Part shown: piece after piece, positions 37,659 through 39,463 of the stretch
How the letters are laid out: each line of letters begins with the position of its first letter
Numbering within the stretch: position 1 is the first letter of the stretch
Position numbers and translations under genes: made by a program
Notes under the pieces: generated by a model
What the model was told of the DNA's origin: nothing
Seen by the model: only the letters and a program-made list of their open reading frames with translations
The model's database searches: none
Virus record (IMG/VR): IMGVR_UViG_2531839129_000021
Length of the DNA stretch: 39,463 bases
Direction: 5' to 3' (one strand)
Source: a virus
Taxonomy: Duplodnaviria > Heunggongvirae > Uroviricota > Caudoviricetes

Positions 37659-38533
37659 TGGCGAAAAATGACTTTAAAGCGTTTGCAACTGATCGGAATG
37701 CCAATGTTATGTCGCAGGAGGAATGGGAAGCGTTGCCTGCGCTTTTATCCGGATTTACAGCAGGGAAAGCATCCAGTGCGCAAGTCAATAAGGTTATTCG
37801 GCAGGCCAGCTTTATTGCTGCAGCTCTGGCCCAGTTTGTAAGTGACAAAACGCAACGGGATGTGCTTGATAATGGTGATCTGCCCGGTTTTGTTGAATTG
37901 CTGGGATCGGGGTTTGCTGTTGAATACCTGAGCCGCAAGAATCCGTTTGGTGATATCAAATCGGATGGCGCGGTGAAAACGGCTCTCGAAAACCTTGGTT
38001 TGGGAGAAGGCTCTGCATTACCGGTTGGGGTGCCTGTTCCGTGGCCTTCAGCCACTCCGCCAACAGGCTGGCTGAAATGCAATGGTGCGGCTTTTTCTGC
38101 TGAAGAATACCCGGAACTGGCAAAGGCTTACCCGACCAATAAATTGCCTGATTTACGCGGTGAATTTATTCGTGGCTGGGATGATGGACGTGGAGTGGAT
38201 GCGGGGCGAGCCTTGCTAAGTCTTCAGGATGACTCTTTTGAAGCTCACAGGCATGAGTCCTTTTTTTACGCGGGTATTTCACGCAATGAAACACCATTAA
38301 AAAATCTTCCAAGTTCAGACGAGATGCTGACTTTAAGTTCCACAACTAATGCCTTGTCCCCGGACAGTATTGATGCCACCAATTCGTTAATTGGTAATGA
38401 TGATTACAACTGTTTGATTGAAGGAAATAAAAATAACAAACGAACGGCAACGGGGTTGAGTACCAGTATTGTCGGTGCAGCAGAGACACGCCCACGTAAT
38501 ATTTCATTTAATTACATTGTGAGGGCTGCATGA
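37658..38533 (+). CDS. Tail fibre protein with tail-collar domain
   Basis: ATG 37658 (MAKNDFKAF...) overlapping the upstream stop (TGATG); contains a collar-domain-like segment ([48 protein letters not shown]); followed by a tfa gene. Confidence 0.65.
37984..38009. other. Candidate Gin/Hin/Pin-family invertase crossover site inside the tail-fibre gene
   Basis: tctcGAAAACC-TT-GGTTTgggaga: imperfect 26-bp palindrome with the AAACC-NN-GGTTT core typical of gix/hix/cix/pix sites; half-sites match at 9 of 12 positions. Confidence 0.4.
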
Positions 38534-39135
38534 TGTATAACGCCATCTTAAATAATAAATTTATTGCCACAAAGGCAGGAGAGATTACCGTTTATAACTA
38601 TGACAGTGAGACACGGGAGTATATTTCTGCATCAATTGAATATCTTGCTGTGGGTGTCGGTATCCCCGCATATTCCTGTTTAGATGCTCCTGGCACACAT
38701 AAGGCTGGTTATGCAATCTGCCGTTCGGCAGATTTTAACTCATGGGAATATGTGCCAGATCATCGCGGTGAAGTTGTCTATAACACCGAAACGGGAGAAT
38801 CAAAAGAAATCACAGCTCCGGGGGATTACCCTGATAATACAACCACTATCGCCCCGTTAACGCCATACGATAAATGGAATGGTGAGAAATGGGTGACGGA
38901 TACCGAGGCACAGCATAGCGCCGCAGTAGATGCAGCAGAAGCACAGCGCCAGTCGCTGATGGATACTGCAATGGCTTCCATCAGTCTGATTCAACTGAAA
39001 TTACAGGCCGGGCGGAAGCTGACGCAGGCAGAAACAACCCGACTTAACGCCGTGCTGGATTACATTGACGCGGTGACGGTAACAGATACCAGCACCGCGC
39101 CGGATGTCATCTGGCCTGAACTGCCGGAGGCGTAG
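38530..39135 (+). CDS. tfa: Tail fibre assembly protein (Tfa / Mu U-like)
   Basis: 201-aa ORF with the conserved C-terminal tfa signature (...[18 protein letters not shown]); overlaps the fibre stop. Confidence 0.75.
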
Positions 39136-39463
39136 GCCATTCAATATCGGGTGCTGTTGAAGTATCAACACGCATCAGCAGCACACGGTATTTCTTCCAT
39201 TCGGTGAGAGTTGAAGTTTCTTCATCAGTTGCGATATCAGCATCAACAGCATCCTGACGCCAGGATATTTCACTGTCAGCTTTTTCCCGTAATTGGGATT
39301 TTTTAACTTCAGCAATAGCGATTAATTCCTTTTTGGTCGGCTGAGGAATATCTATCAGTGCTGGTTTTCCATTCTGTGTTCCAATCTGTTTTCCTGGTGG
39401 AATATCCATAAATAACTTTTTATGTTCTTCTTCACTGACTATTACACCATCATCAGGCCACAT
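39107..39463 (-). CDS. Second tail fibre assembly protein, convergent (U'-like); 5' end probably beyond the window
   Basis: Minus-strand ORF ending ...[30 protein letters not shown]; converges tail-to-tail with the plus-strand tfa with a 29-nt 3' overlap. Confidence 0.65.

Follow-up and report, generated by a model that had tools for sequence, protein, structure and literature searches.

Does the tail-fibre gene at the right-hand end of the viral record IMGVR_UViG_2531839129_000021 (39,463 nucleotides (nt); this whole stretch is called the window below) belong to an invertible switch of which the window holds just the left side? We answer yes with a probability of roughly 0.9: positions 37983-39463 comprise the left crossover site and the leftmost ~1.47 kb of an invertible fibre segment with two states and a length of ~1.84 kb, of the same kind as the P segment of the Escherichia coli element e14 and the G segment of phage Mu. 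The system is an ordinary Pin/Gin/Cin invertible tail-fibre switch and as such already described biology, and its carrier is a prophage with a lambda-type integrase and a myovirus tail. A first-pass annotation of the window had proposed a Pin-type invertible segment here, a reading that is supported by the site, the convergent chaperone genes, near-identical contigs and the occurrence of both orientations. The parts that lie in the window are the following.

37658-38533, plus strand: fibre gene S in its current form, Sc plus Sv, 291 amino acids (from the list of open reading frames (ORFs); an identical protein is called on 14 public contigs)
37658-37994, plus strand: Sc, the constant fibre N-terminus, outside the invertible segment (collinear with a flipped sister prophage, L027, to 38010)
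37983-38008: left crossover site of the pixL type, CTCTCGAAAACC-TT-GGTTTGGGAGAA, in a 12+2+12 register
37995-38010, plus strand: perfect inverted-repeat arm of 16 base pairs (bp), TTGGTTTGGGAGAAGG, whose partner CCTTCTCCCAAACCAA lies ~354 nt past the window end in near-identical contigs
37997-38533, plus strand: Sv, the variable fibre C-terminus (collar-domain tip) in the expressed position, the first gene part inside the segment
38530-39135, plus strand: tfa, the chaperone paired with Sv, tfaE-like, 201 amino acids (PF02413 Caudo_TAP, E 5e-32)
39107-39463, minus strand: tfa', the silent-cassette chaperone, with its C-terminal 118 of 142 codons in the window and its 5' end cut off

The sequence tctcgaaaaccttggtttgggagaag, which the first-pass annotation had picked out as a crossover site, is present at 37984-38009 when checked in the sequence, but the frame in which it was read is one base off and the symmetric register runs over 37983-38008; its position in the fibre ORF had been put at about 110 codons, and we found it ~109 codons from the start at 37658. 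In the symmetric register, the half-sites are 12 bp each and agree at 9 of 12 positions around a central TT (37995-37996), where strand exchange would be expected. The architecture, (A/T)AACC-NN-GGTTT, is that of Mu gix and of the annotated P7 cixL and cixR sites. The 24-mer of the site was matched once in the window at up to 3 mismatches (0.00 expected), the core AAACCNNGGTTT once (0.08 expected), and the 16-bp TTGGTTTGGGAGAAGG once at up to 2 mismatches (0.03 expected), with no match to the latter on the other strand. These thresholds (24-mer at up to 3 mismatches, 16-mer at up to 2) also returned no inverted partner site within the window, in agreement with the earlier placing of the partner beyond its end. 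The missing right part cannot be recovered by circular wrap-around, because the start of the window is host DNA (ybhC). A chance palindrome was considered and ruled out by the identity of the site to a characterised one, and a literature text search with the site sequence as a string gave no match.

The genes around the site have the arrangement of such a switch. The fibre carries a PF07484 Collar domain at residues 124-171 (E 2.9e-15) and, although an in-frame ATG at 37640 would give a protein of 297 amino acids, relatives annotate the 291-residue form from 37658. Downstream, the plus-strand tfa and the truncated minus-strand tfa', both PF02413 Caudo_TAP, converge with a 29-nt tail-to-tail overlap, so that the ORFs and the domain matches agree with the convergent pair proposed earlier; the C-terminal signature said to be shared by the two, VDTSTAPD(V/I)xWP, is common to both in the slightly shorter form DTSTAPD(V/I)xWP. 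The start of tfa is a tandem ATGATG (38530-38535) that overlaps the fibre stop codon, and relatives annotate a 200-residue form from 38533. Fusions of Sc to either variable part, Sc-Sv (291 amino acids) and Sc-S'v (210 amino acids, where S'v is the alternative C-terminus), are both in frame and open to the stop codon.

The site on its own would not be diagnostic, because phage HK97 has it without a switch: its stf gene contains an identical 21-bp sequence, AAACCTTGGTTTGGGAGAAGG, ahead of the Sv-tfa module (92% identical), with att and int following directly and without tfa', S'v, a partner site or an invertase. Matches to the window in many unrelated phages begin at 37984-37992, and e14-type matches begin at 37931, the final ~53 nt of Sc (37931-37983) being common to e14-type fibres, which shows that the site is also a joint for the exchange of fibre modules. 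An alternative explanation is that the window holds a non-invertible stf-tfa module like that of HK97, with the palindrome as the fossil joint of a past exchange. We consider this extremely improbable. Unlike HK97, the window has a convergent tfa' in 29-nt overlap with tfa, which makes the call within the window itself and effectively refutes a non-invertible module; in addition, the complete switch is found in near-identical contigs, and flipped versions exist.

We then turned to DNA that continues past the window end in relatives. An exact-protein look-up of the 291-residue fibre returned 14 public contigs, four of which (L003, L005, L006 and L007) are 99.92-99.97% identical to window positions 30000-39463 and extend beyond them. 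Contig L003, on which the window coordinate equals the contig coordinate plus 27657, carries the following parts of the switch.

L003 11450-11878 (window 39107-39535), minus strand: tfa' with the remainder that the window lacks, 142 amino acids in total
L003 from 11880 (window from 39537), minus strand: S'v, the inverted gp53-like fibre C-terminus
L003 12161-12186 (window 39818-39843): partner site CTTCTCCCAAACCAACGTTTATGAAA
L003 12242-12796 (window 39899-40453), plus strand: serine invertase (pin), 184 amino acids, just outside the right site

The first-pass annotation had predicted an alternative fibre C-terminus, a second site and an invertase just to the right of the window, and all three were found within ~1 kb in these 99.9%-identical contigs. 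The arms of the inverted repeat, which ranks first in the region, stand 1806 nt apart. The partner site, TTCTCCCAAACCAACGTTTATGAAA in L003, is seen in all four near-identical contigs and is expected in the window's source, to the right of 39463, as CCTTCTCCCAAACCAACGTTTATGAAA. Read inwards, the two sites share the core TT and the inner half, TTGGTTTGGGAGAAGG; thus, the core dinucleotides match, as inversion requires. A multi-site, shufflon-like layout of the Min/p15B type was rejected, since L003 has only two sites at up to 7 mismatches. The complete tfa' of L003 gives a PF02413 match at E 3.4e-34.

The invertase of the near-identical contigs begins with MLIGYVRVSTNDQ, which includes the YVRVST catalytic motif, and has a PF00239 Resolvase domain (E 8e-52) and a PF02796 HTH_7 domain (E 5e-13). 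Its sequence aligns with that of the Mu Gin structure 3UJ3 (E 6.7e-94) and shares 95% identity with K-12 PinE; an NCBIfam search with the invertase and fibre proteins gave no model above the cut-off. At the DNA level, identity to K-12 pinE reaches 98% over the first 170 nt of pin. The cin gene of P7 has an annotated enhancer in its 5' end (+19..+86), and over the aligning interval pin shows 97% identity with K-12 pinE and 78% with P7 cin.

Both orientations of the segment occur in nature. A 633-nt Sc::S'v fusion gene is present at full length in three complete E. coli genomes, beside the same DUF2612 gene that precedes the fibre in the window. In one sister prophage (L027, strain MINF_2E) the gene order is wedge, Sc::S'v, tfa', tfa (minus strand), Sv (minus strand) and pinE. 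The window follows the order of L027 as far as 38010 and is inverted thereafter (38492-39462 corresponds to L027 6178-5208, and 37990-38204 to 6653-6438), while L003 regains collinearity with L027 at the right repeat, which places the breakpoints of the flip exactly at the two sites. Sv is reversed in the same way in K-12 e14, where it is stfE. In three further relatives (L009-L011), Sc is fused to the other C-terminus: these are hairpin draft contigs of 4.4-5.3 kb, each end of which carries the constant fibre and baseplate region in inverted orientation, and they contain the recombinant junction ...tctcgaaaacc TTGGTTTGGGAGAAGG tgctaactggg..., which encodes an open 210-residue fibre. Because the 16-bp repeat alone cannot yield this junction at usual k-mer sizes, we infer that the sequenced cultures were mixed. 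A fourth contig (L012) breaks off precisely at the 16-bp repeat. Such hairpins and repeat-terminated contigs could be used as an assembly signature to screen for active invertible segments. The observation of a single orientation only, named by the first-pass annotation as a finding that would speak against a switch, does not hold in these relatives from other strains, given the flipped sister prophages and the recombinant junctions in three drafts.

The closest described system is the P segment of K-12 e14 (ycfK-stfP, tfaP, tfaE, stfE, pinE). The left site is identical at 26 of 26 positions to the MG1655 ycfK/stfP site and the partner site of the near-identical contigs is identical at 26 of 26 to the site beside pinE, with the same 16-bp inverted repeats, which bears out the likeness to the pin regions of cryptic prophages suggested by the first-pass annotation. 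The layout is likewise the same, Sc-Sv-tfa / tfa'-S'v / pin with a 29-nt tail-to-tail overlap of the chaperone genes, and the repeats enclose 1806 bp in the near-identical contigs versus 1797 bp in K-12 e14. The inverted repeats named for the 1797-bp P segment are exactly these 16-mers, and PinE and PinQ were found to invert it by quantitative polymerase chain reaction (qPCR) and sequencing (Kirigo et al. 2025, PMC12529663); Goldberg et al. 2014 (PMC4272514) likewise detected this inversion, using PCR and whole-genome sequencing. K-12 stfE-tfaE is 89% identical in DNA to Sv-tfa of the window (89% for tfaE and tfa) and lies in the opposite orientation relative to Sc, meaning that a cassette of the stfE/tfaE type occupies the expressed position in the window and is silent in the MG1655 reference.

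The two loci differ in their second cassettes and in their carriers. The tip of the second cassette is 18% identical to the StfP tip and its chaperone is 33% identical to TfaP, with a 15-residue C-terminal stretch of tfa' identical to TfaP. The e14 baseplate is Mu-like (gp45-48) while the prophage of the window has a DUF2612/Phage_Wedge1 wedge and an E217/PhiTE-like tail, and Sc differs except for the last ~53 nt. In K-12, e14 has ymfQ and mcrA beside icd. Residence of the window in e14 itself (icd, gp45-48, ymfQ, mcrA) was considered and ruled out by the lambda-type integrase beside ybhC and the DUF2612/Phage_Wedge1 baseplate; a different integrase site and a different baseplate imply a P-segment-type switch in another prophage.

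More distant systems share parts of this design. The G segment of Mu, inverted by Gin, has the order Sc / Sv-U / U'-S'v / invertase, an in-frame site in the fibre gene and a half-site core of AAACC-NN-GGTTT, but it is longer (~3 kb), has longer fibres (S of 504 amino acids) and is followed after gin by com/mom, versus a SIR2-type gene after pin in the near-identical contigs. Mu gix has the core TC and other outer half-site bases and gave no match to the site pattern at up to 3 mismatches, so that the likeness to Mu lies in the half-site architecture only. The C segment of P1/P7, inverted by Cin, has cix sites, TAAACC-TT-GGTTTAAGAGAAC, with the same TT core and inner half-site pattern, and an invertase that is 81% identical; it differs in its length of ~4 kb, in the position of cin on the other side relative to Sc, in far larger fibres and in being on a plasmid prophage. 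P2-like prophages such as pro483 share the Sv-tfa cassette (90% identical in DNA), together with two sites that deviate from the site of the window at 1-2 positions and a DNA invertase next to them, on a P2-type peduovirus tail with a different and longer Sc; the Sv-tfa cassette is silent in the pro483 record.

Several points weigh against a working switch in this particular genome. The sequence ends at 39463, and what follows was seen in the near-identical contigs, which differ from the window at 3-6 positions in 9.4 kb, none being 100% identical. The exact combination Sc-Sv-tfa-tfa' was found in 0 of 5,426 complete E. coli genomes. The Fis enhancer expected in the 5' part of pin is a prediction from sequence conservation. 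In an e14-type element of strain H22 (L001), a segment of 98% identity lies beside a truncated recombinase pseudogene, so locked copies do exist. Finally, a run of ten G residues (30555-30564) splits a tape-measure-like gene of the window into ORFs at 30016-30612 and 30407-32026; should this frameshift be genuine, the prophage may fail to form virions, and a role in host range would be moot for this copy. The tract has nine G residues and an intact gene of 662 amino acids in L005 and L008, ten G residues in L003 and L007, and ten G residues without the preceding GT in L006. It could be a homopolymer sequencing error, real prophage decay or a slippage-prone tract.

These points raise the possibility that the segment is a locked relic, in which the window's genome lacks an intact invertase or an intact right site and the fibre is frozen with Sv on unless another Pin acts in trans. 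The unseen right flank, the H22 pseudogene and the hint of decay from the tape-measure gene would all fit with it, as would an IS5 found inside the region in another relative (H34). We nevertheless hold such a relic to be quite improbable: L003 to L007, all of which carry the identical 291-residue fibre and are long enough to be informative, have an intact right site and an intact 184-residue invertase with YVRVST, and Pin enzymes have been reported to be active in trans on e14 sites (PMC12529663).

Under the preferred reading of a two-state switch, transcription of the late operon would pass through Sc into the variable part that happens to face it. In the captured state, Sc is joined in frame to the collar-domain tip Sv, with the chaperone tfa behind it; the second cassette (tfa' and the gp53-like S'v) lies inverted and would be unread from the late promoter. 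DNA invertases, as exemplified by the Hin/Fis invertasome, carry out synapsis on supercoiled DNA and make staggered double-strand cuts at a 2-bp core. By analogy, Pin dimers would bind both 26-bp sites and assemble them into a synapse with a Fis-bound enhancer within the 5' part of pin; the invertase would then cut both sites at the central TT/AA, rotate one half by 180 degrees and religate. After the flip, Sc would be joined to S'v, tfa' would be co-expressed and virions would have a different receptor-binding tip. The catalytic steps and the dependence on Fis are inferred from related invertases, and a change of host range upon flipping is suggested by the likeness to Mu and P1.

The main value of this assignment is in annotation. 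The switch accounts for breaks in the fibre region and its misassembly into hairpin contigs and ends at the repeat, for "hypothetical" ORFs of 111 and 210 amino acids in relatives, and for the abrupt onset at 37984 of homology between the fibre gene and unrelated phages. It also presents the e14-type P segment as a portable module, here on a different tail type and with a different second cassette. The sole forward-looking angle is an adsorption block like that of StfE2, exerted by an ORF of the silent cassette, which has the following position.

L003 11880-12215 (window 39537-39872), minus strand: silent S'v ORF of 111 amino acids, consisting of the leader MMPFACYFCIFINVGLGEG and a gp53-like tip

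The leader of this ORF has 19 residues and is coded partly outside the segment, beside pin, an architecture shared with StfE/StfE2 of K-12 e14. According to Kirigo et al. 2025 (PMC12529663), StfE2 of K-12 keeps T2 and other phages from adsorbing. It is thus conceivable that the switch is the same while the short ORF of the silent cassette serves defence of the lysogen rather than virion host range. The combination of a StfE2-like leader architecture with a gp53-like C-terminal domain in L003 would fit this idea, as would the presence of a defence-type gene after pin in each relative examined. We regard it as unlikely, given that the gp53-like tip has no more than 18% identity with the StfP tip of K-12, to which it is unrelated in sequence, that the ORF lies outside the window and that the K-12 StfE2 result comes from a single study. 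With the same reserve, the switch might double as an anti-phage device of the lysogen next to a variable defence slot, that is, a phase-variable defence locus with a new blocking specificity, a doubtful proposal drawn from the analogy with K-12.

The slot itself lies ~0.2 kb downstream of pin (L003 13017-15827) and holds a different gene in each relative (also in L001, L002, L013 and L027). In L003-L006 it is occupied by a protein of 936 amino acids with a ThsA-like SIR2 domain (E 4e-29); elsewhere we found mcrA (K-12 e14), a DUF262 gene (H22), HNH, AAA ATPase and FRG genes (QML220601) and a hypothetical protein of 215 amino acids (MINF_2E). The slot looks like a variable hotspot for defence genes.

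With regard to its wider context, the window is an E. coli prophage that begins with the host gene ybhC (1-1284, minus strand); next come an integrase of the lambda type and an excisionase, and this start beside ybhC with int and xis (1-2685) is the att-lambda side. Its myovirus tail end comprises a spike, a sheath initiator, baseplate J, the DUF2612/Phage_Wedge1 wedge and the fibre. In contigs with a 99.9% identical tail end (L003 13017-20876), the right end of the prophage adjoins torT/torR/torCA. Either the same late region occurs at two integration sites, or the chromosome was rearranged between prophages.

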